A stretch of DNA of 64,000 bases from Amphiscolops sp. MND2022. Its lineage: Eukaryota. The position numbers and the translations under genes are program-made. Below are positions 2,393 through 64,000 of this stretch, piece by piece; within the stretch, counting starts at the first letter, position 1, and every line of letters starts with the position of its first letter. The notes beneath the pieces were generated by a model. The model was not told the DNA's origin. It ran no database searches and saw nothing but the letters and a program-made list of their open reading frames with translations. Location of the stretch: positions 25,546,001 to 25,610,000 of the forward strand of contig OZ076409.1 in NCBI GenBank assembly GCA_964187785.1, given 5' to 3'.

Positions 2393-5300
2393 CTAAAAAC
2401 ACACGTTGCCAGACATACAAAACAATGAGACGTCTGATACGACTCATTTGAGAAAGTTTCTGTTATGTTCAAAAAATTCGTCAAGATGGATCTTTAAGCT
2501 TCTGATGTCCTTGAGTAGTATTTATAAGATGACCCATGATTGTGGTTCTCGGATGCTTTTCATTCAAACTAAATGCGGTTTATAAGAAGCTATAACGTTA
2601 TAAAAGTCTGCTTGATATAACCAGAGCCGCATATGCGGTAAAGGAGTCGACTTAGGTCTTTTTCCTTCTGACTCGCTCGAATCCCAGTCATACGAATTTA
2701 TTGAAATTGCACATATAGGACCATATTATTTTGTAGAATGACTGTAGAAAATTTCGTTCGAATCGTATGGACAGTTTTTGAGAAAATCGAAAAGAAGTCG
2801 AAAAATGGCTGTTTTTGGCCATTTTTAGGCTAATTTTGTCTGTTTCTCACATCCTGGTCATACGATTTTGATGCCATTGTGCACGCAGGGGCGCCTTTGG
2901 GTGCAGAATGATTGTGCAAAATTTTATGAAAATCGTACAAACAGTTTTTGAGAAATTTGAAATTTTCATTGAGAGGTCGGGAGAAAAAAACGACACGATT
3001 GCATAAGTAGTCGAAAATTTTTTCCGACTATAAAAAGTTTTTCTGACTCCTAAAAAAGAAGTTGGTATAAAAACTGGTATATAAAAAAGAAGATATAGTG
3101 TTCATTTGGTTAGCATGACTTGGATTTGCAAACCAAACCAAACCAATATGAAACTGTCATCGAAATTGTCAGCATGGTTGAGTTCACTTTTTAGCTCATA
3201 AGATGATGCCTATTCTGAAATTTCATTTGTTATTCACATCATTCAGATTTTCACGAATCAGAAAGAGAAACATTCGCACCTTGCAGTATCTGTGACTCTT
3301 CTTCTCCACCTGTGATGATGATCGGATTTTCAAGATGCAGCCTGTATTGCTTCGATCCGAATGGAGCGATCTCGTGTTCAATTGATCTTCTCTTTCTTGC
3401 TCCATCGGTACACTCACTAGGGTCTACAAAATGGGGCACGATTCATCAATAAATGACGTTAAAAAGTTTAATTTTATCAATTTTTGAGACTTTTTGGATT
3501 TTCGAATTCACACACTCATTGTGCATTGAATTGTGTATATACAACTCATTGTGTTGAAGATAGTCTCTTTAAAGCAAGTGCATCATTCAAATTCGGTCGT
3601 CTACAAACTATCTCGAAAGTTTTCATGAATAGATAAGTTAGGCTATGAACCTTTTATTGCGCAATAAGCTTCACCCTGAGGACAAGCTCTGACGTCACAG
3701 TGGAGATAAATGCCGTTGCTGGATATTTCTCCGTTGAACACCCACGCGAAGGCGGTGAAATGGAAGGCATAGGCCAAGGGGGTGTCAACCAGGTCACGTT
3801 CAAACGTCGCGTCTGTTGGGCATCTGTTAAAAAAGAACGAAATCTAAACTAAGAACCTTGAAGCTGCAAAGCTCTCATGTTAGTTTGAACCTCAATTTCC
3901 ATCCAAATGGAAGCATGTCCAGCCTCGAGCTACTTATACATGTGTTGCCTATGTCAAAAGTTAACATGTTAATGATTAGCTATTCCTTGGAATAATCGTG
4001 GGAGAATCATACAGAAAAATGAATTACCGTGAAAGATCTTGCGAGATTACTGCAAGGATGCATTTTTTTACCAGAGCAGTTATTTAAAAACTTGTCTAAC
4101 GGGATAAAATTGAATCTTCATCGGAAGAGTGGGAACCCATTTAACGTTTAAGCTACTCGGTTATTTCGTAGTATTTATCTAAGGAAATTTATCATGATTC
4201 TATAAAACACTGATCGAAACGTTTCATGGAAACATGTAAAAAGTTCATGCTGAAACTTTTGGTTGCCATAGACTTTCATCAAGCTGTTTGGAAGATGCTT
4301 TCTAAGTAGGGGAGCAATTGAAAATTGGCAGGTTTTATAACGCATTGGTTCTTTCCAGTATGTTCGAATAAGGTCGTCATGTTACGCCTATACGCGGACC
4401 TCAGTGTCAACGGTTTTTAACCCAGTAACTTCTGGCAAGTTGAAGGTACTCAATATTAATGGTTTGCCGTTTTTTTTCAGTCAGCGCTTTTCTTGAAAAG
4501 AGCCGACTATAGTCAAGGCTTTTCGTCAGTGTTTTTTTGTTTTCATTTTTCGATACATCTGAAGTGACCAACATTACAGTGCACAAACAAGCTATTTTGC
4601 TGCTTGTCGTGGAATCCGGGACACGAAAATTGAGAAAAGTCGTGGAATCCAGGACAAAATTTCTCTTTGATGTTAAGCGTTTCTTGGATTCCACGACAGT
4701 GCCTGTCCTGGATTCCACGCCAATACTGCTGCTATAATGACACTTTTGCCGCTGCTCTCTGATTGGTCCGCTGATTTTGAATAATCATTTTAAATTAATT
4801 CAATTTTATATCAAAGGAAATTGTTTTGATTGACACGAAAAATCCCAAAGTACGAATAGAGATACTCATGACTGGTACCAAAATTGAAGCATGTCATCAA
4901 AAAATGGCAGATTGTGATGATCTGGCAGTTTGTTCAAAACGGTACTAAACTTGAAAATACGAATATTTGTGTAATATAATATTCATTTTGCATGATCATT
5001 ATTAGAAAGGCAAAAGAACTTGAATTAAATCAATTTTATATCAAAGAAATTGTTTTGATTGACACGGAAAATGCCAAAGTACGAATAGAGTTCTCGTGAC
5101 TGGTACCAAAATTGAAGCATGTCAATAAAAAGTGGCAGATTTTGATGATCTGGTAGTTCTTCAAAACTGGTACTAAACTGAAAAACAGTAATATTTGCGT
5201 AATATAATATTCATTTTGCATGATCATTATTAGAAAGGCAAAAGAACTTGAATTAAATCAATTTTATATCAAAGAAATTGTTTTGATTGACACGGAAAAT

Positions 5301-8300
5301 GCCAAAGTACGAATAGAGTTTCTCGTGACTGGTACCAAAATTGAAGCATGTCATAGTGGCAGATTTTGATGATCTGGCAGTTCTTCAAAACTGGTACTAA
5401 ACTGAAAAATACGAATATTTGTGTAGTATTGGTGTTTGTCTGAATCATTTTGATTTAATTTACGGAAAGTAGTGCAAAATATTATGTTTGTTCAGTCTTC
5501 CACTTGAATCTGAGGTGCCGCTTATCGCGTCAAGCACAAAGTCGTGGAATCCAGGAAATTTAATGTTTCTGCAATCTGATTGGTTCATTTTGCAAAATTT
5601 ACGCTTTTGTGGAATCCGGGACACCGCTGCATGCCGACAGTGCGTACAGCTAAGCATTTGTTACTGGACTCCACGACGAAATCCGTGGAATCCGGGACAA
5701 ATGACGTAATTGGCCAATTTTGCACGGTTAAAGGTATGGTCGTGGAATCCGAGGTATTGAAAGCACAAAATTGTGCTTTGAGCAAATTTAGCTTGCCTGT
5801 GCACTGTAATGAAAAGAGTTCTACTGTTGGATTTTTAGATTTTGGCGCTTTAATAAAAATCCCATTAAATTGCATGCGGTTCAGATAATAGTTTAGTGAA
5901 AGAAGCTGAAAAGACCAACTGTTGCGTGTTTTGATGATGCATATTTGGCAAACATGGTGTTTACTTAGTAGGCAATACTAAAATACAGGTCATGAAGTGA
6001 CGTCTACAATGAAATTGTTCGATTCGGCTAAGTCAGAGTTGATCGCTTGGAGAAATTTTCACTAAGTTTTTATTTTATGCAAAGACGGGAGGCATGTAAA
6101 AAAGGGCGATCCACCGTCCCGGAAAACTACCGAACCGATCCCGCTAGAATTTGGCACAGTTACACTTGAGCTGTTATGCTACTCGTTTATGAAAACGAAA
6201 CCGAGCCGGTACCACCAGCCCCGGATTATTAGCACAGAAAGTGACCCAGGTCGAACCCTCTACGAACTCAACGACGAAATACGGATCAAGTCATTTAACA
6301 TATGGAATGGATAATCCATAAGATATTAAGCAATTTGAGCACATTTTCGGAACACTACGACGAGCATAGGAGGAGCACGGACCCTATGTAAACAAACCCC
6401 GATGGTTATGTAAGTCGCCGCCTGTTGACTTGAGGACCATGGAACTGACGTGACGTGTTCATCTACCAACCCTAAATAAAACACACGAAAGACACAATAT
6501 TTGGCTCATGTCACGAAGAATATCGTTTGTTTAATGCAAGCGTGACAGGACCCGAGGGCATGACCGATGAATGAAACCGTATTCGTCGACCATACGGGCG
6601 TAACAACCTTAAGTAAACAACTTTATGAAACCATACACATGTCATGTAACCCGAGAATCATTGACCCTAGTACAATATGACTTGACATGTAGCAACTTTT
6701 TGATGAAGGCAAATAACTTCAAGGTCACAGACGGGCTTCAAGGTCATGTTAGATGCAACCCCTGAATACATAGGAAACGGATCTTAAAACATGTAAATCA
6801 GCTTCGTTTGCGCGATAATTTATGCATTTAGTCAGGCGAGAAGATTTGCGATGAAACGCACTTAGAATGACAGAAAAGTAACACTTACACGTATAAAGTA
6901 TGTAAGCAATGTAATTCAAGGTCAATAAATAATAGTCCTGGCATTAGCATTATCTTGGGTGACTTGAATTATTATTGAAATGTGAACTTTGTACAACTAT
7001 TGTTGAATTACTTGTCGTTAACGCCAAAGAGTGTTTAGTCAAAGTATAATCAGAAGCGACCACCATACTATAAGAAGAAAAGACAAACATGAAGGTAAAA
7101 GCATGCAAACTTAAGTCGCCGGCGCCCAGTAATGCAAACGTCAAGTATGATAGATTGTCAAGATGAGATCACCAGAAACACCAGAAACAAATATAATTGA
7201 AGCGGAATTGAAAAATACTGAATAGACACAACCAAGTTAGAGAGCTAGGATTCAGTTGAGCCTCGGGATGGGGGCAAGAGAGGGACTTGACAATTGTTTA
7301 TTCAGTTGACTGGATCGTGAAATATATTCGCTGAACATTCTATTAGAAGATTGTCTTTCTTTACCGTTTTCTGTGATTTTATATTGATTTCTTAACTCGA
7401 TTATCCTAAAACACAGTCTCGTTGCGAATATAGGGCCGATAGAGCAATTTGGACAGAACTAATGTCAAGCTAGTCTTATGAGCAGAAGCAAGAACTCACC
7501 GTACAAAAAACCTTTTCTGATAGAGTTAGATCCTTGGGAAATCTCTCCAGCCTCGCTATCTAAATTCTCTACATCTACCAAAAGTTCTACAATTTTTATA
7601 AATTGCCCCTGTTGGCTCAGGGAGCTGAACCAAAAAGGTTTCCCGCGTAACATACAATACCGGACGAGACCAAATGGCCCATCTTTCAGTTTTTTCGTCA
7701 TTGCGAGACTTTTTTGGGAAAAAATGTTGCCCATAGGGTCCCCCTTCTTTTTTTTCGGCATTGTAAGACTTTTTCAAAAAGTTTTTCGGGTGCTGTAGAA
7801 GAGAATACTTTGACACTTTAATGTCTTTTTGCTATTTTTGAGCGTTAGATATGGCGCCGACTTGGGCCGGTCCCGGCTTGTTAATGTTGGTACCACACTG
7901 AAGTCTGAAAAGGTTACAAAGTGAATGACTCCAAATGAAGTTATCAGTGGCTTCTAACGTATCACTCTGCAGATTGTACCGACTGACGTCATCGGCGTCA
8001 CTGGTTTGGGTGGCCCAGCAATCTGTCGTTATCACTTCAAATGAACTTAGAGTCGACTGCGCTGATATCATCACGTAAATGTTGTTTCCCATTGCAATCT
8101 TCGGCGATTCCCTGAAAAATGAACAAGAATATGATGGTCAGGAAAAGTTCGTTAAAAAGTCTTTTGTCGATTATCTATAGAATCAATCTAAAACCATTGA
8201 GCTAATTCATGATCTCAAGCTATTGAAGTCTTAAGCAGGGCATCTTCTAGCTTGATAAATTGCCAGATGGTCTCCTTTGATTATGTTAAGGGCTGATATA

Positions 8301-11300
8301 AATCATTTGTTTTTTTTTGTATGAACCAGAGAAAAGCCTTATTATTAGGAAAATTTATACCATTTTGCCTAAATTTTGTCAGTCTAGGAGCAGACTCGGG
8401 TGTCCCGCATCGCAACTTATTGAGCACCAACAAAAAGATAGCGATGAAAAACGTTCAAAACGTTTAATATTGCTTACTCTAGGTAAGGAGTCGTGTATTT
8501 GTAGTTTGTGTAAATTTCCATTTTGAAGGGAATTTCACCAGAGCGGGAAACTGCGTAGACATTCTGTTGAACATTAGCTGTCTTTCCAGTCGCATCTCCC
8601 TCGGAGTTGTAGAAGCAGTAGGCTGGAATCTGCCAGCTTTTCAGAGCAAGCGGGTCCGTGCTGCTTGTCAGTGGATCTTCTTGGGCTCGAGCGATTTTCT
8701 GCTGGTAAACTACATCTTGGGAAGTGAAGGTTTCTGGAAAAGGATTTCAAAATCAGATATTGAAATTGCGAAATTGGCAGGAACTCAAATTTGAAGGAAA
8801 ATTTTTTGGAAAAGTTCCAACAGACTTATAGCTTTAAGAGAAGTTTCAAAATAAACATTTGTGCAGATTTGAAAATTGGTGATGGTGATAAGTTTATTTT
8901 TGACAGATGTTCTTCACACATTTTCAACCTTACAGTTTACAATTTATCCATTAGTCTATTAGTTTTTAAAATGTTAGCGAGGTGATTTGGGAAGAAAACT
9001 TTATTTATCTTCTAACAGAGTATCGTTTTTCGAGGAAAAATTGGCCAGAAAAAAGTTATACAGACGTGTCGGCGTTTGAGATTCCAGAAGTTGTTGGAAT
9101 GTTCCACATTGGGTGACGTCAGTAGCTAGATCCAGGTTCAAGCTCCAATAAGTGGATCGTAACCAAAACAAGTCGTTGGAAACCACCAACGGACAAGATC
9201 TATCAATGGCCGCCAGAGAAGGCAAGGCTGGAATATGAAAGAATTCGAATCTATTTCGGTCAAAAATATTGTACACGTATCTCCGTACAACTCCCAGATG
9301 TTTTCTGCAAAACTCGAGCACATTTGTAACAAAATGTGTCGACTAAAAAACTGAATTGAAACACTTAGCAGCTTAATAAACACTTGAAACATCTGCTTTT
9401 TTGGTAACCGGGTATTTTGTTGTTCACTTTCATGGTGTCACCTCACACTAAGCAGTTTCTACTCAGTCAATTTCAAACGTAGCCATTTTAGATTTATACT
9501 TATTTTTAATCAGTGCCCGAAATTTTTTTGTCAGACCACAGACATCACACTGAATGGTTCACTTTTTACAGACTTTACATCTAGAGTACTAGAGGGTACT
9601 CGAGGAGGCCAATAGGGTAATATTTTTGACTTTTTCATAGTTTTTATCGTATACTCGATACTATATGGGACTAAAGTCCCGTATCCTCCTTATAGTGTTT
9701 TCGGCACTGTGCAACTTTTTCTCCTGAAATTTGCATAATTTTACTGAATGGTCACATTTCGATTTTTTGAAATGTTTTCAGTTAGGGCAATACGTTTCAA
9801 GAGCGTAAAGGATCCCCTTCAGGTTTTCTCCAAAAAAATGAAAAACAGCCTTCGCGAATTTTTTTTGATGATTTCTGTTAGAGATGAGCGTTTTCCGAGC
9901 ACAACAGGCACCCTTTGGGCATTTTCGGCATGCTTATTTTTGTGAGATTTCAGAACGAAATTGCAGTATGCTGAAAATGCAACAGATTGAGGATGTGAGC
10001 CGAAGTTGCACAGGATGAAATATTCTGCAATCCTATTTTAACCTCATTTAAATGATTCTGTCAATGAAAACTTCTCACCAATTGATGCGAAGTCGAAGCT
10101 GAGACCAAAAATACCACCATTACTTGATTGCGCAGTGACACTGTAGAAGAATTGATCGCTGTTGCCTGTCGAGGCAGTGTTTGAACATGTAGCCGCGGGT
10201 CCAAGACATGTTCCAGCGGGTCTGGATAGAAAAGTGATCATCCGACTCGTTAATGAAATAGTAAATAATAATTTTCGGTACTCTTGCTTTGCTCATGGGA
10301 GGAGGGAAAGCAAGATTATTCATAAAGTTAGCTAGTTTTTGTCACGGCGAGTCTCTCAACTAAAATTCTAAGTGTTTGACCTGAATGTCTCCAAACTACA
10401 AACAAACATTGAAACCTATTTTTTGATAAATTCAAAAAAGACCATCTAATAATACTAGCTACAGGCATGGAATGCGGGAAATACAGGAGCAACTTGCGTT
10501 CTACGTGATCGTAAATTGTTGAAGTCCTCTAATTCATTTGTAATCTTTTTTGTTCAGTTTACACCAACTTTTTGAATCGTGTTGTTTTTAAAGTATTCAT
10601 GGTATTTCAAAAGTAATTTTGTGTTTTTTGTAATCTGTCGTGTTCAAGCTTTTGTGGTTCACTTCTTCAAAAAATTAACAACAAGTGCTTCGCAACCAAG
10701 ATGTGTTCGAATTCATCAATTGGTTAAAAGTTAATAGAAAATGAAAACAATTGAAACTGGACTTCTTACGTAAATTGGATGCCACTTAAGCAGTTGGGAT
10801 CACTTCCAGCAAGTTCGTACAGCACACTCGTTGTGACGTCAATGAAGTTCTCTTCGGCTTTAGAGTCATCGGGACTCCCCGTGAAGCCAGCTTCACTGCC
10901 AGCTACCCAAACGGACGTCTGTTGGTCACCGTAAACCTGGAAGCAGAAATCAACAGCATTAACTTAGGATAAGTTTACTAAAACGCAATTTGAGAAGTGA
11001 GTTACTTTGATACTTAAAAAATTGAATGAAGCGATTTTTTAAACTTGAAAGCACTGCAGTGAAGCAAAAATTTTGATGATTCATGAAAATTTATGGTTCA
11101 TCTGAACTTAACGCAGATGAAATGCAGAAGTAGCTTCTGTCAAAAACTGGAAATACAATGGCTCCAATGGATAAGCTCTTTTGACCTAAATCAGAGCAGC
11201 CTGGAATAATTCATAGAAAATACAGGGACTTTTGTGATTGTATACCTTATAAATCAGAGCCAGACCCTGGATGCAGCTTTCGCCCTGATTCCAGTAAACC

Positions 11301-14300
11301 TGGGCTCCCATGGGGTATCCAGTAAACTCCGTGGCACTCTCCGGAGGATCTTTCTGGAAAAGAGTGTGGGCTGGCCAGATGTGAGATTGGAGCTCAGAAA
11401 TAGAAGATTTAGAGTCAAGTCCAGTGCTATCAGATGGAACAATGGCGTTTTCTGATTGGCTGTTGAAGTTGGTTGTAACTAAAATGAAGAACAAGTTCAG
11501 AAATTATAGAAACTGAAGGTACCGTTCGTGTGAGAAAAGCTTTCGATATGACTATAATCTCTATTTATAATAGCCCTTCTCGAATTAAAGACTAAATCAA
11601 TAACAACTAGGCGCGAATGTGTCGATTTTGAGCCCATCCCAAAAATTTGCATGTCATTCGCAAATAGCAGTTAAAGAATTTTTTCAAGCTGACGCTTTAC
11701 CGGCAAAATTCAAAATGATATTTTTGTTGCCAAAAGTGATGGTTCTTTACATTTTTCACATTTGAGAGCCCATATCTTGCTTCTAAGTGCCCGCGTCAAT
11801 CCCATGTTGAGCACTCCCTGCGAACTGTACAGATCTGTCCTGACAGATATTCCAGAATTGTTCGAAAACTGAATAGTCATAAATTCAGTTTTCAAAATGA
11901 AATTAGTTGATTAAAAAGTGCTCTACGAAAGAAACACTCGTCTTATTTGAAGTTTTGAAAAAGTTTCTGTGCGAATCTGTACAGATCTGTAGAGATCCTT
12001 GCAGATATTCCAGGATTCGCTAAAAATTAACCATACGAAAATGACTAATAAATCACTATAACGTATTCCGAGTTTCCAGCAATTATTAAAAGTATTTCAG
12101 CAAACCATGTTCCCGAAATATTACAACCACAGCACTTTATCAACACCTCTATCAACCCAGGAGGTTGTCACATGTCAAATTTCATCCGTCAAAACAAAAC
12201 GAATTCAATATGGCAAACGAGCCTCTCAAAGTTGAAAAACCACTTCTGGAAAGTTCAAGTGAAATGGATAAATTACCGTTATAACCAACACCGAACATTC
12301 CCCAGACACCAAAATTACTTTAATGGGGACAAGATTTCCTGCTCAAGAATTTGAGTGTAGAGTTTCAACTGTCTGGGCCTTGATCAGCAAAAATATTTAT
12401 TGAAGAAGCTCAAAAATGAAAGGCATAGTTTCACTAGAATGTCCGGAAACAATTTTCCTGAGAAATCAGTACAGAAAATCTTTGAACATCTGTAGATCTT
12501 GCAGATCTGAAGTTGTCCTTACGTAGCAGTGGCACGATCTTTACAGATCCTCAAGAAAAATTGGCTTAAGATCTTTACAGATTCTCAGGGAAAGCTCAAC
12601 ATGGCATATCGCTTAGCGGTTAATGAGCCCTGAGGATTACGTGAACAAATGTTAGTCCAAATCGGATTTAAATTGAATGAGCAATAACTGGTTTTTTGTC
12701 AAAATTTTCCGAAAATTTCATTGATCTCAGTCTATCTCTGCCATTTGTGCCCAACATTTTTTCGAATTACACTCTCAGTGGTAACCCTGCCCAAATTTCT
12801 AAGAATAAGAAACAGGTGGAATTGAAATGCTGGTTGCTACTAAGAGATCTAGAACTGGATACCTATTTTAAACCATGGAAAACTTTCAAGACATTTGTCG
12901 TCATCAACCCACCCACCAACCAGACGTGTGAGGACGGTCATCCGTTTTGGTTACTTGTAACTGGACCAAAACTTCGAAGAGCCAAAAACTAAAGAAACCA
13001 GGTTTTACATTTAAGCAATAAACATACTAGCAATTTGTACGAAAAAATGAAAGTCAAACAATGATTATATATGAAAAACATGAAAATCATGGCATGACCA
13101 TATGTGGAAACGAGTTATTTTACTTAATTCTCAACACAGTCAATTTAAATGCTTAACTTCATTAACTGAATCTCTTGATCGCAGTTTTTACTGAGAAAAG
13201 TAGTTTGACGCGGTGTTTCTGCATTTGCGCCAGCTAAATGGATGCAGCATATATTTTGAGTTTTCAAAATTTAGTGGAGTGAGTTCTTTTCAATTCGGTT
13301 ATCGGACAAAAGCACCCTAATTAAACGCGCTCAGATAACAGAAACAGTAGCACCCTATTGAAAAGCGCTCCAGTCAAAGGCATTTCTGTCGAAAGCACCC
13401 AATCGAGTGCGTTTAAAGGTTTATTTCACGGAATAATTGAGCACCTTTGTGCTATGCAACGTATTGAAATTTCGATTACGTAATGAAATTATTTGACTCA
13501 TTTGCTAAGTCTTATAGTGCCAATGCTAATAGGACTGGATAGCTCTGAGTTCCTCAATATTATTCTGCGCGTTCAATACTAACTACATCAAAATCAAGAA
13601 AAAAACTTGTCGATTTGTTGCCCCAGAAAAGCCCCTCCCCGTTATTGGGTGTAAATTTCCCGCTTGAGGTAGGAAAACAAATCTTTCGTCTGAAATCCCT
13701 CCTTCATGGTTTACATTTAGTAGCTGAAAATTGATCGAAAGGAAACAGTTTTTATGTTAATATGGCTCACAACAATGGTAACTCACACTTTCGTGGTATT
13801 CGGCCCGCAGTTTTTTCAGACACCTTCACGGCTCTGTTCCATTTTTGAGGGTATTTCCCGGCACAAATACCCACAGAGAGTCAAAATTTTGAGATGTTTA
13901 TCATTGAAAGTACTGAGGGTTTGGGCTTCGCCGAAGATTTTTTCTGAATATTCCGGCTCATTTAATGTTTTTTTATTCATCGGATGCGTGAATTTTCCCG
14001 AAATACTCAGCTTACTGAAACTTTTCTCACATTCCGGCTTCGTCTTCGTGATGTGCAATTGACTGCTAGAGTACCAAGCACTGCTATAGAAAGTTTTTTG
14101 GCCGCTTTCGATAGCAGTGCTTGTTACTCTAGCAGTCAATTGCACATCACGAAGCCGGAAAGTGAGAAAAGTTAGTTAGTTAATAGAAATGGGTTAAAAT
14201 AAAATTAACTAACGCGATGGAATGGCCTCGTATTCCACTTGAATGTTCATAGCCCCAGGAGTGCCACCGCAAGATACGTCTGCTCCGGCCGCTGGATTGA

Positions 14301-17300
14301 AAACACAAAACATGATTTGTAGGAATTACGCGTAGAGTAGAAATTCTACTAATAGAAATTCTAATTTTTTTCGCTCAACATTATATAACATAGCTCTTTA
14401 AAAAACCAGCGGTTGTTAGACTTTCTAACAATTCTAGAAAAAACCCAAGAGCCACTAAAATTGTGCAACAATGTTTTAGCAGAGTTTTAACCAGTTTTGA
14501 ATAGGTATAGATAAAGTTGACAGAGCTTTATTGAATGCGTTTTCACAATGTTCGCACTGAAAAAATATTCATGCATAAGTACGTTTATCGTACGTGTAGT
14601 TTTCAAAGAAGAATCAAATGTACTTTTCATCTTTACTGAAAATCAAAAAAAACCAGTTGGTGTTTAAATGCTTGAAAGTTTTTCGTTGATTTTCCAAGCA
14701 ACATAATAAACTTTGATCAAGAGTTTCTATTAGAAAATCTTTTCTATTCTTTTACTAACGTGTGGTAAAAGTTTTATCCTCGCTCTGTATTGAAGTTATG
14801 GAAACAGCGTCTTCATTTTGTTGCGGTACGAAATCCACGATACCCTCGAGATACAATGAGTAAGTGGAACCTGCCACTAAATTGTGCAAAACCCCACTTC
14901 CATCTCTGCCCCTTGTCTGACTTGCGTCCAGAATGGAAACCTGGTTGTCTAACTCAGCTCCAGTCGAGGTACTGGACAAATGCAGTTGGACTTTTGAGTA
15001 GCCAACTGGGTTGTACCAAACTACCTCTTGCATATCGGCATCCAGTCCGCCTGGAACAGAACCAAGGTAATGTTAACCATCATCGATAATTAAATTGCAA
15101 CTTGATTCAAGTTACGTATTTTTTTTGATAAATTCAAGATTAAGACCGTCATTAACTTTATCGTGCATTTCTGCATTACATAAAATTCTTCCCTTCAACG
15201 GATCAAGAACATTGTCATAAAAAAACTACACCGAGCCTAATTTAAATAGTTTTAACTACAATTATAGTTCAAAACGAATTTTATTGATTTTAGTGTTCTT
15301 AAAACAGCAAAAACGAATGACTATATGACTCAGCCCTCCTCCTTCCGGGGCGGCCTTCGCCATACCAGCCGCTAGTCAACCTATGGCAAGTCGCTCCGCT
15401 TCTATTCGCTCCTGAACGAAGGGCACTATAGGTGTCTCCGTAGCTGATCACGTCTGTTCATTGGGCTTCAAAAATTGGTCATTTTGCTTCGCTTTAAAAC
15501 CGGGTGTTTTGGTGAAAATACAAAATCGGCCGTTTTGTTAACAAGTCGACTGTTTTGTTATGCCTAAGTATCTGCCATTTCGAGGCGTCCCCATTCTTAG
15601 GATAACCATAAAATGGACCAGGAGTGACATGGTTCATAAGTGACGTGAAACATTGACTATGAGTCTATGAGTTCGAGTGCGATTTTCGATTTCAGTGACT
15701 ACCTCAGAAAAGAAGTGCAAGTTTCATAGATGTAACTGACATAAACAAAACTCTTGAGCACAAACTCTTGATAACTTTTGAGCACAGTTTCGATGAAAAC
15801 CTATACGCTTTCATCTTATAAGAGTTTGAAAATTTATAGCCGAAGGCTCGATTTCCACAATGTTGCAGAGTGGATCCCAAGCAAACACTTCTGTTTTTAT
15901 AAATTTGAGATGTTACCATCCAAGTGAGCAAGCAAAAGTTTAAAAGTTTGGGTAGCTAAATGTTACAAAAAATCCAACTGAATATCCCGTTGCCCTTTCT
16001 TGCTGCATAGCATGTTGTTTTCCTAGTAGGCGTAGACTTACTTGTAAACTGTGCTGAATTGACTGGGCCTGTGGCACTGTTTTGAACACTAATCCCTTTG
16101 ATCAGAACTGGTTCCCGTGGCTCTGAAAAAGAACGATTATTCAATAAAACATTATAATTTGTCACTAAAGGATCTTCAACCAAAATGGACATAACTTACG
16201 AGCCCAGTAGAAAATGAGTCCAGTTGTCTTGTCATTCTCATAGATTGTATCAATGTACCACAAAATGAGGTTGCTTGTGTTCGGAGTTACTTCTGAACCA
16301 GTGCCAGAGGTTTGTCCAACCGTAGCCAGAATAACATCGCCATACATCAATGTTAAACCAACAAAAGTGCCGGAGTTGACATGAACAGTCACCTGCATAA
16401 CACTTAGCGCATAATCTCTACACGTTTGGAATCTCCATTTGATGGAAAGTTTCTATAAACTGATTTTAAAACTTTTCTCATGCAATATTTTTCAGTCAAG
16501 GTTGCCAAATTCTGTCATATTAATTTTGAATGGTTTCAATTCTTTCATTTCAAAACCAGAGCCGCATATGCGGTAAAGGAGTCGGCTTAGGCCTTTTTCC
16601 TTCTGACTCGCTCCAATCCCAGTTATACGAATTTATTGAAATTGCACACATAGACCATACTATGGTGTAGAAACTGACTAGAAATTTTCGTTCGAATCGT
16701 ATGGACAGTTTTTGCAAAAACCAAAAAAAGTCGAAAAATGACTGTTTTTTGGCCATTTTTGGGCTAATTTTGGCTATGTTTCTCACATTCCAGTCATACG
16801 ATTTTGATGCCTTTGAGCACGCAGGGGCCCCTTTGGGTGTAGGATGACTGCGCAAAATTTTATGAAAATCGTATAGACAGTTTTTGAGAAATTCGAAATT
16901 TTTGAGAAATCATGAAAAGGTCGGGAGAAAAAAAAACGACACGATTGGATAAGTAGTCAAAAATTTTTTCCGACTCCTGAAAAGTTGTAGCAATTGAATT
17001 TTCGAAAATAAACTATGTACCAGTTTATATTTTAAAATGTGAAGCTGGTCCATGAAGTCAGTTTTTATCCGACTTCTAGGGTGTCCCAAAGAACGCCATA
17101 GGAACAATGCCCATAGAAAAAACTCCTAAAGCTTAATAATGTCAATTGAAAATTACGATAACGTAGTTAGCTATATTCACAGACTTTAGCGTCCTGAATG
17201 TAGGAGCGAAACGGAGCGACGTACTATTACTAGCCCAGAGGCTGGTTTTGACGAACGCCGAGTCATACAAGCGATATAAAAATTATGGGATCATGAGAAT

Positions 17301-20300
17301 TAATTCTTTTACTAATAAATCCTATGAGCCTTTTTCACGGGGGTGTTTTTTCCTTGTGCGTTTTTCCTGTAACCGTTCTAATATGCGGCAGTTTTCTGGT
17401 AGCTAAAAATTCCATTTTGCAGACTTGCTCTAAGCTATCAGAAATACAAACCTTGTTTATAAATTTCCCATCTAAGGTCACATCGGATCCTGAGGTACTT
17501 CCAGCGTTGTCTCCCAGAGGGTGATCGTTTACCACAAGTTGGGAACCCACCATGTTGAATTTGACCGGCAGAATGACGTCACAAGTCTGGTCTGAAGCGA
17601 CCGAGGAAGTGTATTTGGGCCGACTAGAGAATACTGGACCATCGAGTGAAGGGCTGTCGATTTCAACCTCTGAGGTACCAATTTCAGTGTCCACTTGGTA
17701 ACCGTCTAAAGATAACCAAAAAAATGGTAGTGAAATCAAGTAGCCTTGAAGAACCTTTTGAAAAACTACTTTCGAACATTTTCCGAGAATTAGAATGCGC
17801 TAATTTCAATTCTTATAAACACCAGAATTTTCAAAAGGTTCAAGAAACTTCAAATAGAGGATACACTCTAGAAGATCGAGGGTATTGCGAGGGTATGGGT
17901 GTACCCATCAAGTTTGATTTCATGACCTCTCCATTTATTTACTTACACGTCCATGCATAATACACAGCTTGGTCTTCAAACATCCTATTTGCAGTTTGAA
18001 CTGTGTTGATGACTAATCCAACAGGTGAGCAAGGGAGAGAAAACACTTTGACAGAATAGAAGCCGGTGTATGGGGTAGTATTGTCCACTATCCCGGATCC
18101 CAGCTCTACTGTTTCGCTGGCAACTTGATTGGTGGGGTCTCTGGCAGTTTTGCGTGTTGTCTGGAAGTACGAAAGAGTCTCAGCTGGCCAGAAAATGTTG
18201 AAACTGAATGTGATTTCTTCGTCCGTGGTTTCCCACTCCACAACTCGAGGATGCAACAACTCTAAACAGTGACATTATTGTCAAGAAAGGGAAAAGATTT
18301 GTTGTGCCATTTGGTACCTCGATTTCATTATCATAGATTATGATCGTTCTTCCTTTATTTACAGTAAGGAAAACGTTGCTGTTAGAATTTTTTTTAAATG
18401 CCAAGCAGAATTCAGTTTGAAAATATGCAAAATCTGCAGTGCAAGTTAGACAAGAGTTTCACGAGATAAGCAGTAAGTGGAAACAGAAAAGTGATGGGTT
18501 TTTAGTCTTATTCGACACTGTCAGACCTAACAAGCGCCTGTAGGCGACACGCTTACCGCTCCCAAAAAATTTCGCTTTCCTCAAAAAATCCTGAAATTGA
18601 AATTTTTGGTTCTTCCTGATACCAATTGGTTTCAAAATATCGAACATGTCAAAGGGAGCCCTTCATTATTATTCAAAAATTGTTTCAAAAAATGACGAGT
18701 CTCAAAAAGTCTAAAGGGGGACCCTTTTCCTTCGTTTATTTCGGTAAATATGTCAACAATCTTTACATCTGGAATTCATACTTTTAAACTAGAAGTTTAT
18801 AAAGTATTCAAATGCTATGAAACACAAAAAGTTAAACTATATCTGTTTAAAAGTTTAGAAAAAACACTGTCTGGACGATATGAAACTTATGATATCTGTC
18901 CAATCGGGTTTGGACGTTTTTGCTTTTCCAATTATTTCCCTCAACCTTACTGCTGCGTGGGCCTGCTTGTGTTCACGAGATTTTTGATTTATCTTTTATT
19001 TGATTAGTATTTTTCAGTGAAAAGTGACGCTGAAAGCAGAGATACACTATGATACCAAATCTAATATCACAGGCAAAAGCTTTGAGATCGCCTTTTGTCT
19101 TAGGATATGAGTTTGACACAAAAATGTTACAACAACAAAAGTTCTCAGATTTCGAAATTTGCCTAAATGTTTTTTTTCGGAACGAGACAAACAAGTTGGT
19201 AAACAGTCGCATGCAAAGCTGAACTTTTTGAAGCTCAACGCGCATTAGCAAACTTTCAAAATGGCATCTGAAAAATATTCTGAGCTAATTCAAGCTATTG
19301 ACAGTGAGCCTTTGAAGGAAATTCTATTACTTTTGACACAAGATTTACTCAACAAAACTGAAACCATTAAAAAACAAAATGCCCAAATTAGAGAGCTCAG
19401 AAACGAGGTTACTGATTTAAAAGAACGAATATCGGAGCAAGAAAAATATTCTTCCAAAGACACTATTATCATTAACAACTTACCTTTATTACAAGATGCT
19501 GATCTGGTTAGTTCGGTCCTTTATTTTTTCCAGACGTTTCTGGATATTCAGCTACTGAGGGAAGATCTGAAAGCGTGCCACTTTTTGGGAAAGTGCTCAG
19601 ACATCAATAAACCTCCTCCGGTAGTAGTGAAGTTTGTTTATTTTCATCAAAAAAATGATGTTTACGTTAGACGATCAATGCTGGGCAAACGAGGTAAGCA
19701 AAACCCTATCAATACGGAAAACATCTACATAAATGAAAGATTGCCCAAGGAACAACTGCTCATTAAAAAGTACGCCAATGACAAAGGACTCATCACAACC
19801 ACCTATAATTGTGACGTGAAGTTGTTTCTGAAAGATAGCAGTGGGGCTACTTTTTCTCAAAAGGTAACTTCAACCAAGATGGTAGATGATTTAACACACA
19901 AAGCCCTGAAAAAGCAAGACACTCACAAGTGAAACGAAATGTACCCGATTCTACTCCCGAGAACCCAAAAGATAAACGTTTCGAAATTGCTGCAACGCCA
20001 ATAAAGAATGACAAATCAATGGAATCTGAAATGAATTGAGCGTTGCACTTCTTTCTTTCTTATCCCGATATTCTATTTTCTAATGGCTTGAAAGATAATT
20101 CAAAAAAGACACTGATCAGTAGTGGTAAAAGTGAAAGTTATAATTTTGTTAGTCGATATGTGCCTTGCAGTATTTTTTTGAGTTATGCGCTTGGAGCTTT
20201 TTTTGGCTGAGTTTTTTTTGACTTCATAATACCAATATATATTGAGTGTAACGCTCAATCATCCGGTATAAAACAACTGAAAACCAACTTGATCTTTTTT

Positions 20301-29300: not shown

Positions 29301-32236
29301 CCTACTGCCGACGGATAAATACAGTAAACTGACCAGTTTCTTCTGAGCTGCATCCACGTGCAAATTCCCCATCATTGCTATGTTTCTCGAGTTTTGTTCA
29401 GTAGGCTCCTGGAAGAGTTCGGAGATGGCGATTGAGTGTTTTGGCAGCACGGCGACTTCTAATAATTGGATCCATTGATCCCAGTCTTAGATAGGGGGCT
29501 TTTCCGGATCTTGCCAATACTAGCTTAATCCCAGAACGGAAGAATTCACTTCATCATTTGAAGCTCGCAGCGCCATGTTCTAGGGTACTCGGTAGAAAAG
29601 ACGCAAAGTAGAGTAGTTGTGAATTAAGGCAATCTGAATACGTATGGCGTTAATCGTAAGAATGGCAATTCAAATGAATGTGGCAAAAGCAGGTTGTTCG
29701 CCAATAATACTTCAAGGGGCGTCTTAAGTTATTTTCTCACACTATCACATTATCGTAGTATCATTTTGCTGTTTTTGTTTATCGACTTTCTCATATTCGC
29801 ATATGGGCTCACCAAACAGCTAACAACTAAACAACTTTCACAGAAGGATCAAGTAATCTGAGTAAGGAAACTGCATCGTGCGAAATTGTAAAGGAGTTTT
29901 TCGGGAAAAATTCGATTTCAGTTGAAAAAATGCTACTCACGGTATTGCAGAGGGTACAAAATGAAGGCACCGCCTCCTGATGACTGCTGCAAACCAGCAA
30001 AGCCAGCGAACGCGAAGTTTGCTTCAATTGGGAAAGAGACTTCGTTAGTGTTACATCCAAAACTGTTTTCTGTTCCGCTGTCGATGATGCTGATTCCACA
30101 AACTGCTCCGTTGCCATCAGTCACAGTGTACAATTTGACCTCTTCCACTTGAGTCAGCTGAAGGTCGGTTGATTGACCTGCTAGAAAAAAATATATGCAA
30201 TGTTTGAAAATGTGAATGATGTTAAAATCTACATGTATAATAATGACGTCTTGCGGCAGACTTTAATCAGATTCAGAAAATAGATGATGCAAGCGTTTGT
30301 TTTTAGTGCTTTTGCGTCATTCAAACCCGAGTAATTCATTCGGTTTCGAAAACTATTTTTTTGGACATTATTATGTGAGGTTTTTAGTTTGATCTTTTTA
30401 GCCCACGGTTCATGCGTTCTCTATTCCATGATCCATTCGAGATTATGAAGAGACCCTTGGAACACCAATTATTCAGCTCATTTTTGTTTTCTCATTATTT
30501 TTCGGCGTTAATAGTTTCTGCAACAGAAAAGAAAAAAGATAAAAGTTAATTTTTTTAAATTTTCATGAACAAACTACATAATATAATTTCTATACCTAAT
30601 TTTGTTGAACTATCAATTAAAATCAGACTGGAATGTTTTCTGGTTTTCTGAACTTACTTTGAACGTTTCCAAAAGTTTGTGTTGACGAGCTTCCCCCTTG
30701 AGACGTAAATGTGACGACGACACCCATCAGCGCCCCAGAATCCGTGAAAAGTTGCACTAAAGAAGAAAGAAAAACGTTTATTTCCCAATTCCGTGGGGTG
30801 GACGCCGAATAAGCAGTTCTGCTTTCTACAAAGTCGTTGCCTTTTTTCGGATACCATCTGCCCATTGCAAGCTATGGTGCCATATTTGCAGCCAAGTGGT
30901 CAAGCAATGGTCGGCAGCTCGAAGCTGTGATTTCAAAGTGACTTGCGGAAGGTCTCAAAGCTCTGACTGCTCACAATTTGAGAAAGAAGTTGTGAGAAAT
31001 CACGAGAGAAAGTTGTTCTGATCAACGTTTCATTTCAGCAGCTACTTTTTTAGATCAACCCAAACGTCTAGTCCTCATGAAACTTAGTGTTCCAATGAAA
31101 CATTACAAACGTTCAAACTTCCAACAAAATGTAGAGCTACGACTGTTAAACTTCCACATCCGTTTCAAGCACCTGTATACCCCTCCTCCCACAAGCGGAA
31201 TACTTACAGCTAGTTGGTACCGAGTCCCATCCAATCAGAGAAGACTCAAGACCTCCAAAAGTGGGTTGCATCTGATCGAAGTTTACCAATGCTTCCGATG
31301 ATAAAACACTAGACGGCCATTGAAGATTTCTGCCCACTAAAAACAGAACCTGAATGATTGGTAAAAATTCAGAAACACTGAATAAAACATCGATTTTTTC
31401 TATTACTCAGGGAAGCTGCGAACGGAAATTTTGTTTTACAACAATGATGATGTTGAAATTGAAATGAAAACAATTATAGGCCTACAGTTTTTTGTCGCAT
31501 ACTAAGTTACCCATAATCACTGGTACACGAGAAACGTTTCTCTATTTCCTAGTTATTATTTGTCAACAATTCAATCAAACTTTCTCAAGTTTGGAATGTT
31601 GGTCAACCAAACTAACCATATTCAGCAGTGACGGCAGCCGACATGTCTGTAGTGAGAAGAGAAATCACCATGTCAGCCGACGACGATCTCAACCCCTGAA
31701 TCTTCTTGGCGAACACTTCACAGACCTTGTGTTCTGGCTGAAAACGACACTTACTCAAACTGCGTTTTCGATAAGCTGCAAAAATTTTTGATAACTGTCA
31801 ACTTTTAACCATTGCACCTAAAATAATCTGTAAACAAAGTGTCTTTTTAAAAACTATTTTTTGTCATTTTTGGTCGGTTGCATATTTCAGTGCAGAGAAA
31901 AGTTGGAAACCATTCCATGTTTTATAGGACAACGATTCGAAGTCTCCAACATAACTGACATATGAACCGACTCTTTTGTATGTATCTTCAGATTCATTTT
32001 CCCTCAAGCAGTTGATGATTTAGTAGTTTTCTTCGATAATGAGTTGTAGATTATTCAACTTACGTAGCACACAAAATACCCATCTAGGTTTGTATCATCA
32101 GTTGTAATTTCAACTTGTGCAGCCAATTCATTCTGTGATCCATCCAGAATTGTGAGGCCTGTAGTCGAAGGTTCGTCTCCCGAGTAGGCGGCGTAAAATT
32201 TAGCAGTTTCGTAATCCAACAGCGTGGCACTTAACC
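2229..32236 (-). CDS. Multi-exon gene (5'-partial) for a type I membrane ZP-domain protein: FN3-like and jacalin-like repeats, ZP-N, ZP-C, furin site, TM
   Basis: 20 manually spliced GT-AG exons with matching phases and no internal stop: 32236-32064, 31737-31617, 31336-31208, 30756-30658, 30180-29941, 18261-17947, 17705-17452, 16392-16200, 16122-16042, 15050-14760, 14291-14214, 11478-11246, 10936-10770, 10221-10079, 9227-9066, 8733-8478, 8111-7959, 3823-3651, 3423-3280, 2392-2229 (about 1,190 codons). ZP motifs: VSC..MNIQV, IDRSC, QCGT, YCFY, GEIPFKMEIY, DCWAT, TCPTD, FHFTAFAW, IYLHCDVRAC, RKRRS. Confidence 0.8.
2619..3030 (+). repeat. Dispersed ~420-bp repeat, copy 1
   Basis: Highly similar direct copy at 16554-16975 (aaccagagccgcatatgcggtaaaggagtcg...). 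Confidence 0.9.
3280..3423 (-). CDS. ZP gene exon; last Cys, furin site RKRR and external hydrophobic patch
   Basis: ttttgtag|AC, CAAG|gtgcga; DPSECTDGARKRRS...LHLENPIIIT. Confidence 0.85.
3651..3823 (-). CDS. ZP gene exon; ZP-C (Cys6, Cys7, Ca, Cb)
   Basis: ttttttaacag|A; CPTDATF...YAFHFTAFAW...IYLHCDVRACPQGEAYCAIK. The donor G|gttcat at 3650 completes the six-Cys ZP-C pattern; an in-phase alternative G|gtgaag lies at 3674. Confidence 0.85.
4577..5806. mobile_element. Non-autonomous TIR element (TA TSD) with an internal ~230-bp tandem repeat
   Basis: TA|CAGTGCACAAACAAGCTA ... TAGCTTGCCTGTGCACTG|TA; many subterminal GTGGAATCC motifs; tandem units at about 4801, 5031 and 5259. Confidence 0.8.
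7959..8111 (-). CDS. ZP gene exon; ZP-C (Cys5)
   Basis: atttttcag|G, AC|gttaga; IAMGNNIYVMI...VITTDCWATQTSDADDVSRYNL. Confidence 0.85.
8478..8733 (-). CDS. ZP gene exon; ZP-N Cys4, linker, start of ZP-C
   Basis: ccttttccag|AA, GA|gtaagc; DVVYQQKI...IPAYCFY...SGEIPFKMEIYTNYKYTTPY. Confidence 0.8.
9066..9227 (-). CDS. ZP gene exon; ZP-N Cys2 and Cys3
   Basis: ttcatattccag|CC acceptor; LPSLAAIDRSCPLVV...DVTQCGTFQQ. The donor (C|gtctgt) is weak and was chosen for phase. Confidence 0.6.
9535..9940 (+). repeat. Dispersed repeat family; related pieces at about 38881-39200, 7570-7883 and (inverted) from 41637
   Basis: Shared start cacagac(a/c)tcacact(g/a)aatgg..cacttttt (9537, 38882) and shared end ggcgccga(c/g)ttg...cccg (7853, 39179). 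Confidence 0.6.
10079..11478 (-). CDS. Three exons (11478-11246, 10936-10770, 10221-10079) encoding jacalin-like repeat 3
   Basis: Canonical sites, phases 1-0, 0-2, 2-1; GAQVYW...CIQGLALIYK|VYG...WVAG...FID...LAG..CLSGIQFT|P...GP...FFYSV...GGIFGLSFDF. Confidence 0.75.
14019..14173. repeat. ~155-bp near-perfect hairpin (MITE-like)
   Basis: ~70-bp arms cttcgtgatgtgcaattgactgctagagta / tactctagcagtcaattgcacatcacgaag around a short loop. Confidence 0.9.
14214..14291 (-). CDS. ZP gene exon; start of ZP-N (Cys1)
   Basis: ttcaatccag|CG, TCGC|gttagt; PAGADVSCGGTPGAMNIQVEYEAIPS fits the ZP-N V.C....M.I.V start. Not in the ORF track. Confidence 0.7.
14760..15050 (-). CDS. ZP gene exon; FN3 repeat 3 (clearest FN3 signature)
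   Basis: tctgttccag|GC, ACAC|gttagt; VVWYNPVGY...VLHNLVAGSTYSLYL...KTFTT matches the FN3 W..P / L.PG..Y pattern. Confidence 0.8.
16042..16122 (-). CDS. ZP gene exon following a 77-nt intron
   Basis: ttctttttcag|AG, ACAA|gtaagt; QPREPVLIKGISVQNSATGPVNSAQFT. Confidence 0.7.
16200..16392 (-). CDS. ZP gene exon; end of jacalin-like repeat 2
   Basis: ttatgcag|GTG, GCTC|gtaagt; VTVHVNSGTFVGLTLMY...VGQTSG...TTGLIFYWA. Confidence 0.75.
16554..16975 (+). repeat. Dispersed ~420-bp repeat, copy 2
   Basis: Matches 2619-3030. Confidence 0.9.
17452..17705 (-). CDS. ZP gene exon; first part of jacalin-like repeat 2
   Basis: tatctttag|AC, AAG|gtttgt; GYQVDTEIG...DVTLDGKFINK joins in frame to VTVHVNSG. 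Confidence 0.75.
17947..18261 (-). CDS. ZP gene exon; FN3-like repeat 2
   Basis: ctgtttag|AG, ACGT|gtaagt; phase 1-1; LLHPRVVEWETTDEEITFSFNIFWP...AVYYAWT. Confidence 0.75.
19261..19932 (+). CDS. LINE ORF1p (coiled coil, RRM, CTD type)
   Basis: LRNEVTDLKERISEQEKYSSKDTIIINNLP, ACHFLG, PVVVKF, IYINERL are typical invertebrate LINE ORF1 motifs. Confidence 0.8.
   Translation: MASEKYSELIQAIDSEPLKEILLLLTQDLLNKTETIKKQNAQIRELRNEVTDLKERISEQEKYSSKDTIIINNLPLLQDADLVSSVLYFFQTFLDIQLLREDLKACHFLGKCSDINKPPPVVVKFVYFHQKNDVYVRRSMLGKRGKQNPINTENIYINERLPKEQLLIKKYANDKGLITTTYNCDVKLFLKDSSGATFSQKVTSTKMVDDLTHKALKKQDTHK
20320..23205 (+). pseudogene. LINE ORF2 (AP endonuclease and reverse transcriptase) with one in-frame stop at 20896-20898
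   Basis: NIRSL, LTETW, GGVAFYV, IYRP, GDFKI, IDH, SDH (APE); NYRPISLL, FIDLQKAFD, GVPQGSVLGP, FADD, KYLG (RT). The two ORF-track pieces share one frame. Confidence 0.92.
25009..25179 (-). repeat. 3' LTR of the intronic Gypsy element
   Basis: Direct repeat of 29576-29749, about 85-90% identical by eye. Confidence 0.9.
29576..29749 (-). repeat. 5' LTR of the intronic Gypsy element
   Basis: Direct repeat of 25009-25179, followed by a tRNA-Ser-like PBS. Confidence 0.9.
29941..30180 (-). CDS. ZP gene exon; end of jacalin-like repeat 1
   Basis: ttttttctag|CAG tandem acceptor, TACC|gtgagt donor; DLQLTQVEEVKLY...VCGISI...SFGC...FAGFAG...ILYPLQY. Confidence 0.75.
30658..30756 (-). CDS. ZP gene exon; jacalin-like repeat 1
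   Basis: Strong polypyrimidine acceptor ttttctttcttctttag|TG, donor CAAA|gtaagt; LQLFTDSGALMGVVVTFTSQGGSSSTQTFGNVQ. Confidence 0.7.
31208..31336 (-). CDS. ZP gene exon; linker and start of jacalin-like repeat 1
   Basis: tgtttttag|TG, AGCT|gtaagt; GRNLQWPSSVLSS...WDSVPTS. Confidence 0.7.
31617..31737 (-). CDS. ZP gene exon; second half of FN3-like repeat 1
   Basis: gttttcag|CCA (phase 0), TATG|gttagt (phase 1); PEHKVCEVFAKKIQGLRSSSADMVISLLTT. Not in the ORF track. Confidence 0.65.
32064..32236 (-). CDS. ZP gene exon, most 5' exon found; first half of FN3-like repeat 1
   Basis: ttggcag|GG acceptor, TAC|gtaagt donor; GLSATLLDYETAKFY...DGYFVCY. Confidence 0.7.
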
Positions 32237-34069
32237 CTGCCAACAAAAAATGTAATAAATCTGCTGTATTTCAAGAACAGATGCAACACGCTTTCAAAAA
32301 TATGTATGTATACAAACAAAAAAGTTGGTTTGATTTATGCGGTAAACATCATACATCACGTTGTACACGTTGTGGTGTATTCTGTTAAAAATTTTATGTC
32401 AAAGTAGCTTGATGAGAACTTCAAAATAAACAAACTATATGGTTGGACTGTTCAGCTCTTTCGTGTGCGCCCCTGAAGTTATTTGAAGAACATAAAAGTG
32501 TTAGCTTCAATGAAGATGGAGTTCAGAGTTTTTAAAATTATATGATTGCTTCAGTATTCAACTAAAATTAGGGCTGAAAGTAAATTTTGATCAACATAAA
32601 GATTGGCTTTTGCTTTTTATTTTGATGTACCATTTTGATTTTTTGAATTTTGATTTCTGATTACTTTTTTGATATCTCCAGAAAATCACAATTCGAATAA
32701 ACAAGCTCAATTTATGCTAAAACGTACACCAAGAACCATATTTTGGTGGCTATAAGTCTATCGGCAAAATCAAAATCTCTGATACTTTAAGCTCATTATG
32801 GGTGATATGGTTTCATGGAAATATTGGAAAGGAAACTTTTTCGAACTTCGAGCATTTGTTTTCATTTTAGTTTTTTAAACAGCGAAGCTAGCTGTTGATT
32901 GAAAATTTTCCCAAATTGAAATCAATTTTTTTAAACTGAAAAATAAACTTCTCCGAAATTTGCTCAGTTCTTTGCTCTGAAATAGAAAGGAAAAAGAAAA
33001 CTAACATTGAGTAACGGCTACTGAAAGCCAAATTTGAACCAAAAATGTAAAAATAAACGAACAGTAAAACTTCATTCTGGCAACTGCTTTAGAAGCATGA
33101 ACGTATTACGACTCTCAGTGTGAATTTTTAGTTTTCAACGTAAGTTTTATCTGTTCATAAGAATTTGAAAATTTTCATGCTTTTTCCAACAGGCAAACAG
33201 TGAAATCCAAAGGCGAAGCAAAAGGAAAAAGGAAACGCTGAATTGGTAATTATACTCGAAAACAGATAACAAGAAAATACTGCTTTAAATTTATGACTTG
33301 CGATGAGCCATTTTTGCTGTGGTCCCCGCACTGTACATCAAATAAGAAAGACACGAAACTAGAAAACGTCGATCCGGTATTATTCAATTTTGAAAAGCAA
33401 TTGGTAATTCAGTTTCGAGTCATAAATCGAGAATAGTTACTTTAAAATTAGTCTAGAAATATGCGCGGCAAATGTGTGCAATGTTTGACGATCAATAATT
33501 TTACATTTTTGTGTTAAGATATCATTTTTTCATTTTTTTGTGCCAAATGACTGTTACACGCTTCATTTCTTAAAGTAATAATAAAGTCACTAGCTGCGTT
33601 TTACAATGCACTGCAAGTATTCTGTTGAAAACCATGTAATGATGTTACATCTTTAAGTTCCAATGTTTTATATTGTGCTATAACTGTAAGACAATCCAAA
33701 AACAATACCAATCTTTTTTTACTTCATGGATTTTTGTCAAGTAATTTCAGTTCGAAGTTTTTAGAAGTTTAATTTTGAGAGAGCTAATATCTTATGATAA
33801 AAAGTTTGAGATCGCCAACAAATAACGAAAAATTACAAATAGGCCTAAAATAGTGCTTCCCTGGTTGTCTTCAAAGAGTTTGTATGAAAACGACGATCAA
33901 GATCGCAACCACTTTTAACTGGAAACTTTATGAATATAACATATACCGAACACCAACCGAAAAAACTGCGATTTTTATTTCAAGATCTACGCGAAATGAA
34001 ATATTGGCTGAAGTTTGAATTAATGTCAACAAAACTCTTGACTACAGTAACTTTATCAGGGTAAGTAGA

Positions 34070-56570: not shown

Positions 56571-56822
56571 TATTTCATAGGTCTAAAAGGATTACCGTTA
56601 GGCTTACTAGGTGCATTATGGGGAGAGCTTAAGGCTCATCATTCAGTTACAATGGTGCGAAAACGGCTCCATAAGGGAACCGCAACAAATTTAAATTGCA
56701 GTTCATCTAACTAACTAGAACAAAAAGGAATTGGTTTTTGAATAATACATTACAAGCATGGGCATGACAATTACCAAGGTGGGGAGATTAGGGAGGGGGC
56801 AACAGAAGAGAGCTTGGGCAGG

Positions 56823-63997: not shown

Positions 63998-64000
63998 TTT

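Follow-up and report, generated by a model that had tools for sequence, protein, structure and literature searches.

The 64,000-nucleotide window of the Amphiscolops sp. MND2022 genome analysed here (contig OZ076409.1; C1:25,546,001-25,610,000 of the 1.07-Gb genome G000) contains a minus-strand, spliced ZP gene in which a separate domain appears to be inserted inside ZP-N, a domain from which filaments of the egg-coat type are normally built. Three exons (11478-11246, 10936-10770 and 10221-10079) lie between the exon encoding the first ZP-N cysteine (Cys1) and the exon encoding Cys2 and Cys3, and judging from the genomic sequence they are likely spliced in routinely as part of one ZP gene. The insertion is likely real and conserved, and marks an expanded ZP family that is likely specific to acoels. 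The insert, about 180 residues long, is predicted to have a beta-prism I (jacalin-type) fold, which is the likely assignment. Constitutive insertion of this domain on a polymerising ZP module is the preferred reading, with a probability of roughly 70%.

All five exons concerned (the Cys1 exon, the three insert exons and 9227-9066) are bounded by canonical AG/GT splice sites and have the phases 1-1, 1-0, 0-2, 2-1 and 1-1, as a previous sequence-only reading of this DNA had proposed. The insert exons sum to 543 nt and the ZP product translates stop-free both with and without them, so the earlier claim that including or skipping the block keeps the frame is also correct. This symmetry is explained by a module having been shuffled into a phase-1 intron, and alternative skipping is not needed to account for it. 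Exon guanine-cytosine (GC) content is 0.46-0.58, against 0.33-0.37 in the four introns of this region. The gene model comprises 20 exons with a complete open reading frame (ORF) from the ATG at 33075 to a stop near 3210 (Table 1). Its product of about 1,143 aa, a mosaic with a signal peptide, a ZP module and a furin site, is likely a secreted matrix protein. Pfam detects only ZP-C; no window exon matches Pfam ZP-N or Jacalin, and both labels rest on indirect tests.

The arrangement recurs within the genome. Four genome searches yielded the 17 ZP loci examined (all counts are lower bounds), and 11 of these carry the insert, at 22-32% identity to the window insert: the window itself, two loci at C2 78.0-78.1 Mb, one on C12, two at C3 69.2-69.5 Mb, one on C13, one at C2 92.8 Mb, two on C5 and one at C1 39.0 Mb. 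In 10 of the 11 genes, located on six chromosome-scale contigs, the order is the same: an FN3-like exon, a one-cysteine phase 1-1 exon (the Cys1 exon), the insert and then the Cys2/Cys3 exon. For the eleventh (C3:69.25 Mb), the 22 kb of repeat-rich DNA upstream yielded no Cys1 exon. In every gene with worked-out insert boundaries (7 of the 11), the spliced insert is free of stops, has AG/GT borders and a length divisible by three. The remaining four rest on profile matches, and the copy at C2 92.8 Mb looks interrupted. The insert is split over one, two or three exons among the paralogues (none to two internal introns), with constant flanking phase-1 introns.

Four loci have an uninterrupted ZP-N. 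Three of them contain a 1.1-2.5-kb phase-1 intron exactly between strands B and C, and the fourth has no intron at this place. The ZP-N regions at C9:37.4 Mb and C3:0.28 Mb were left out of this classification. The insert profile matches nothing in these two loci or in the four uninterrupted ones (5,663 open stretches scanned). The sequence-only reading had suggested a domain grafted into a ZP-N loop, and this is well supported by ten genes of the genome and five database proteins that show the same order, and by the empty phase-1 intron in 3 insert-free paralogues.

Database relatives of the insert were sought with a profile against 1.84 billion representative sequences, which gave 14 matches; one of them, P0014, was discarded as a coiled-coil false positive. 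P0013 (1,294 aa on a 4,109-nt contig) and P0015 (1,094 aa on a 3,585-nt contig) are full-length continuous ORFs. They nearly fill their short contigs, leaving no room for introns, and therefore likely represent spliced mRNAs. Three further relatives, RefSeq models from the acoel Convolutriloba macropyga, came from cluster look-ups: XP_075264427.1 (partial), XP_075239418.1 and XP_075238939.1. The Cys1 segment is joined straight to the insert in 5 of 5 database proteins, and the four full-length ones continue with Cys2-4, ZP-C, a furin site and a transmembrane (TM) tail. Alignments of these relatives with the window model span most of the model and show 25-27% identity, and the model including the insert is colinear with P0015 over residues 115-1142 (27% identity, E 4e-91). 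PF00100 matches P0013 (E 3e-19), P0015 (E 5e-22), P0019 (E 2e-9) and P0023 (E 6e-14), and uromodulin is the closest PDB sequence match of P0015 (E 6e-8). One database ORF is 50% identical to the window insert, and all named relatives are acoel, which makes an acoel source of the window likely. Word-index protein searches returned no match for window exon 8734-8477 or for the insert exon of a C2 paralogue, and only P0015 itself for the P0015 ZP region. The ORF P0009, on a 597-nt contig, combines an insert fragment with a prokaryotic N-methylation motif and has an unrelated N-terminus; its source is likely a chimeric contig.

Several comparisons identify exon 14291-14214 as ZP-N strands A-B. The available part of PMC7456536 places ZP-N Cys1 in strand A, Cys2 in the CD loop, Cys3 in the EE' loop and Cys4 in strand G. 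Ten ZP-N sequences from which the insert had been cut out align over their full length with those of three uninterrupted paralogues (HHalign 96.7%, E 4e-10, 101 columns), upholding the prediction that the Cys1 exon joined to 9227 gives a well-formed ZP-N. The Cys2 exons of two uninterrupted paralogues match Pfam ZP-N (PF23344; E 0.0065 and 0.022, below the cut-off) from profile position 22-23, and the break is therefore placed after strand B. Fifteen Cys1 pieces compared with the four uninterrupted ones scored 17.3, a value reached by 0 of 100 column shuffles, against 8.4 for the best of 40 control windows from the insert. The ZP-N body contains three cysteines and the Cys1 exon one in 10 of 10 genes, and the insert has an even number in 7 of 7; with three cysteines in the body, Cys4 needs a partner. 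ESM features rank ZP-N clusters first at 0.85, which is a lead only. A PF23344 search of the genome gave no candidates, its controls being silent too, and no ZP structure was among the fold-search matches of the low-confidence model of P0015 ZP-N plus insert. Motif scans for Cys1 exons produced intron-like false candidates on both sides of the inserts.

The fold of the insert was assessed on two models, one of two thirds of a paralogue's insert (pLDDT, the predicted local distance difference test score, of 55) and one of P0015 ZP-N with its insert (insert core pLDDT 60-82). For one of them the best 26 of 35 rows of the fold search were all beta-prism I proteins, and for the other so were the best 28 among the 50 matches listed; the beta-prism I alignments cover model residues of about 60-224, inside the insert. 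Some top rows (Cry, PirB and VMO-I) belong to what we take to be beta-prism I proteins. Invariant columns of the insert are F-x-G-Y-P, a Gly, a Phe and a Cys, and one or two internal disulfides are likely. PDB sequence searches with insert profiles gave one chance match at E 0.22 and otherwise none, the ESM Atlas gave no usable match for insert exon 1, and a search of the genome with PF01419 found no match, with silent controls as well. The modelled insert may be described as lectin-like in fold only, with sugar binding putative.

A number of observations weigh against the preferred reading or parts of it. The beta-prism I matches have Z scores of 3.0-4.9, in the range that the tool calls possibly generic, and the fold is therefore likely rather than proven; the Foldseek ranking agrees with it without reaching significance (E >=0.04). 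Pfam Jacalin (PF01419) matches none of the window exons or 16 homologues. A GG loop and GxxxD are the motifs of mannose-binding jacalins (available part of PMC4059138); among the 10 inserts, three have GxxxD within their final 45 residues, in unaligned places, and no GG loop is conserved. The description of the insert as jacalin-like by the sequence-only reading thus survives weakly at the level of fold (Z<5) and fails at the level of Pfam family and sugar-binding motifs. The window gene model was read from genomic sequence alone, and no convincing TM exon lies within 13 kb downstream, the gene stopping after the exon with the strand resembling an external hydrophobic patch (EHP). Single Cys1 pieces compared with a 3-sequence profile beat shuffles (<=3 of 100) in 3 of 10 genes only, P0015 and P0019 have an odd cysteine count, and the AlphaFold model of the interrupted ZP-N of P0015 has a mean pLDDT of 46.6, with ZP-N parts below 50. 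Because the database relatives were retrieved by way of the insert, no skipped form could have turned up among them. In a tree of the 17 ZP modules (insert excluded) the base is unsupported and three changes are needed, with one origin not rejected (p-AU, the approximately unbiased test, 0.234).

Among other explanations, a regulated cassette, akin to the switchable one of the sequence-only reading, whose use would depend on tissue or stage and which would give filaments with and without the side domain, is unlikely. Skipping does keep the frame and yield a well-formed ZP-N, the block is frame-symmetric in all seven genes with worked-out boundaries, and two insert-free paralogues may be losses. 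However, insertion into a phase-1 intron produces such symmetry anyway, one to three exons would have to be dropped together, and all five database proteins include the insert (a weak point, since all were found through it). Two full RefSeq names also lack the isoform label that the naming convention would presumably demand. The insertion could instead be real and the module non-polymerising, a monomeric or dimeric surface or secreted scaffold like endoglin or betaglycan. The unfolded ZP-N of the structure model, the lack of a Pfam ZP-N match among window exons and the missing TM tail of the window gene would fit this, but the module retains the four ZP-N cysteines, the strand-F Tyr, an FxF-type motif, the RKRR furin site and an EHP-like strand, and this makes such a scaffold very unlikely.

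That exon 14291-14214 is not ZP-N strand A-B at all, with ZP-N truncated or its Cys1 supplied by the insert or an unseen exon, is highly improbable. It would explain why single-sequence scores show no gain from the Cys1 piece in 7 of 10 genes, and the exon scans missed true Cys1 exons (1 of 4 in one scan, 3 of 6 in another), but the profile match unequalled by shuffles, the cysteine parity and continuous ORFs with no other Cys1-like piece between insert and Cys2 speak against it. An isoform with a different Cys1 exon, also raised by the sequence-only reading, finds no support. A same-strand nested gene or a local misassembly has a next to negligible probability. A second copy of the region, on contig C1566, ends 47 nt short of exon 9227 and one AATAAA/ATTAAA is present at 9510; against this, no signal-peptide first exon was found in the intron 14213-11479, and the order is repeated in nine other genes and in continuous ORFs from other sources. 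The suggestion of a nested gene by the sequence-only reading is not supported.

With the constitutive insertion preferred, its origin can be considered. The insert (22-32%) and the flanking ZP sequence (25-33%) show equal divergence from the window gene, which fits one old event. Three insert-free paralogues contain an empty phase-1 intron, which fits exon shuffling of a phase 1-1 module. Going by these sequences, a single ancient insertion of this module into the pre-existing phase-1 intron of the B-C loop in an acoel ancestor, followed by gene expansion, is the most likely history, and two insert-free genes could be losses. An intragenic donor is not claimed: the insert matches upstream module 2 with a probability of 13% and module 1 with 0.2%. 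In a uromodulin-like, EGF-rich ZP gene at C7:56317364-56323429, the phase-1 intron of the ZP-N B-C loop is empty.

In the proposed working of the protein, the precursor would be secreted, cut at RKRR, lose the EHP strand and polymerise like uromodulin, with Cys1 still bonded to Cys4 across the insert. The beta-prism domain of about 180 residues in the ZP-N B-C loop would then project as a side domain from each filament subunit, one prism beside the filament core in addition to the N-terminal branch. The ends of the prism would lie close together, and it would hang off the loop outside the listed ZP-N/ZP-C filament contacts. The E'FG extension and the fg loop form the contacts of ZP-N with ZP-C in uromodulin filaments (PMC7737619, available part), and the ZP2-N2 bc loop is flexible or disordered, exposed and accessible (bioRxiv 2023.06.21.544075, available part). 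Since the filament contacts use E'FG and the fg loop and the bc loop is exposed, the processed protein would most likely polymerise and display the prism. The prism would most likely serve an apical matrix, mucus, or an egg or cocoon coat as an adhesion or cross-linking head, perhaps with a non-canonical site for a glycan or protein ligand. A bolder version is rather improbable: acoel ZP filaments with an integral non-canonical beta-prism glycan-binding head on every subunit, switched by block skipping in some members, as a tunable glycan-reading surface matrix serving, for example, mucus adhesion or the handling of algal symbionts.

The family shares with uromodulin-type proteins (UMOD, tectorins, ZP1-4) a signal peptide, N-terminal accessory domains, a four-Cys ZP-N, a linker, ZP-C, a furin site and an EHP-like strand, and relatives of the window gene also share the TM tail. 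Uromodulin carries its accessory branch on the N-terminal side of an uninterrupted ZP-N (as far as the available part of PMC7737619 describes it), whereas here a domain of about 170-200 residues lies inside ZP-N. Long insertions have been recorded within the ZP module of C. elegans CUTL-9 and, as lineage-specific ones, of trout VE and chicken ZP3 (available part of PMC7456536). The CUTL-9 insertion is in the DE loop and has no folded domain named in that part of the source; the present insert is in the B-C loop and, unlike it, is a conserved, family-wide domain encoded by exons of its own. The bc loop of ZP2-N2 (the ovastacin site) is the same loop, flexible, exposed and functionally used, but according to the part of the source available it belongs to an N-terminal ZP-N repeat with a cleavage site, not to the polymerising ZP-N, and carries no domain insertion. 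Jacalin-related lectins and other beta-prism I proteins (Heltuba, ZG16, RbmC/Bap1 prisms, Cry domain II, VMO-I) are the top-ranked fold matches of both models; the insert differs from them in its Z below 5, the lack of a Pfam or PDB sequence match, the unconserved GG loop and GxxxD, and its own F-x-G-Y-P. No description of a domain-in-ZP-N arrangement or of an acoel ZP family was found in the full-text literature searched, whose coverage leaves out subscription journals, and the available part of PMC13361971 mentions neither acoels nor lectins.

The prevailing view takes ZP-N as a compact, uninterrupted polymerisation unit with accessory domains at the N-terminus. A conserved, expanded family would indicate that the B-C loop can carry about 20 kDa of cargo, and presents an exon-shuffling event with filled and empty sites in one genome. 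A domain inside ZP-N would explain why annotation pipelines label such proteins ZP-C-only or uncharacterised, and the family is likely an acoel-specific matrix component. If filaments form, they would bear a regularly spaced predicted side domain, offering a site for display that occurs naturally on ZP polymers and a way to test directly which surfaces of ZP-N assembly requires.

Table 1. Exons of the predicted ZP gene, in window coordinates.
Feature	Position	Strand	Content
Exon 1	33006..33075	-	ATG and hydrophobic signal peptide (inferred)
Exon 2	32064..32236	-	N-terminal region
Exon 3	31208..31349	-	Phase 0-1, links exons 2 and 4 in frame
Exon 4	30658..30756	-	First part of upstream beta-rich module 1, which resembles a beta-prism by eye only
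Exon 5	29941..30180	-	Upstream module 1; homologue in C2 paralogue, E 3e-6
Exon 6	17947..18261	-	FN3/Ig-like by eye, no Pfam match
Exon 7	17452..17705	-	Start of upstream module 2
Exon 8	16200..16392	-	Upstream module 2; weak profile similarity to insert, probability 13%, E 0.002
Exon 9	16042..16122	-	Start of second FN3-like domain
Exon 10	14760..15050	-	FN3-like domain immediately preceding ZP-N; C2 paralogue has a homologous exon
Exon 11	14214..14291	-	ZP-N strands A-B with Cys1, 78 nt, phase 1-1
Exon 12	11246..11478	-	Insert part 1, linker followed by first part of predicted beta-prism, phase 1-0
Exon 13	10770..10936	-	Insert part 2, phase 0-2
Exon 14	10079..10221	-	Insert part 3, phase 2-1
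Exon 15	9066..9227	-	ZP-N from strand C, with Cys2 and Cys3, phase 1-1
Exon 16	8478..8733	-	ZP-N strands F-G, signature Tyr, Cys4, interdomain linker, ZP-C start
Exon 17	7899..8111	-	ZP-C (PF00100, E 3.6e-7, above cut-off)
Exon 18	3651..3823	-	ZP-C with FxF-type motif
Exon 19	3280..3423	-	ZP-C end, RKRR furin-type site, hydrophobic EHP-like strand
Terminal exon start	3210..3214	-	Acceptor at 3214, near-immediate stop

The FN3-like and upstream beta-prism-like labels of the N-terminal exons were given by eye from patterns presumed to be typical, and the strand after RKRR is what we take to be the EHP. An alternative acceptor 5 nt downstream of the last acceptor also leads to a stop within five codons. 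The C12 paralogue and four database proteins possess a TM tail, unlike the window gene. Many ZP-module proteins, though not all, have a TM or GPI anchor at the C-terminus.

In a second insert-bearing subfamily (C5:68212688, C1:39066977, C2:92822924 and 92825682) Cys-rich CC..C exons precede the FN3-like exon and take the place of the upstream beta-rich modules; these exons are presumably three-finger/Ly6-like. On C13, an extra 78-nt one-cysteine phase 1-1 exon candidate (C13:19048039-19048116) lies just before the Cys1 exon and is possibly a duplicated or alternative Cys1 exon. The copy on contig C1566 (5650-20328) is a partial copy of window 9274-19182, 96-98% identical and carrying a 4.7-kb insertion, and lies in a different context, beside a thymidine-kinase-like ORF. 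It keeps the Cys1-to-insert order; its three insert exons are 100% identical to those of the window and its other exons differ by 1-2%. It may be a segmental duplicate, a haplotig or a chimeric contig.

The 11.7-kb intron of the ZP gene holds broken remains resembling long interspersed nuclear elements (endonuclease/reverse transcriptase) and long terminal repeat (LTR) retrotransposons, at window 19249-23400 and 25200-29600. Two more Gypsy-like LTR retrotransposon copies with frameshifts or stops are found at 47200-51000 and 52300-64000, the second of them GC-rich (0.51-0.56).

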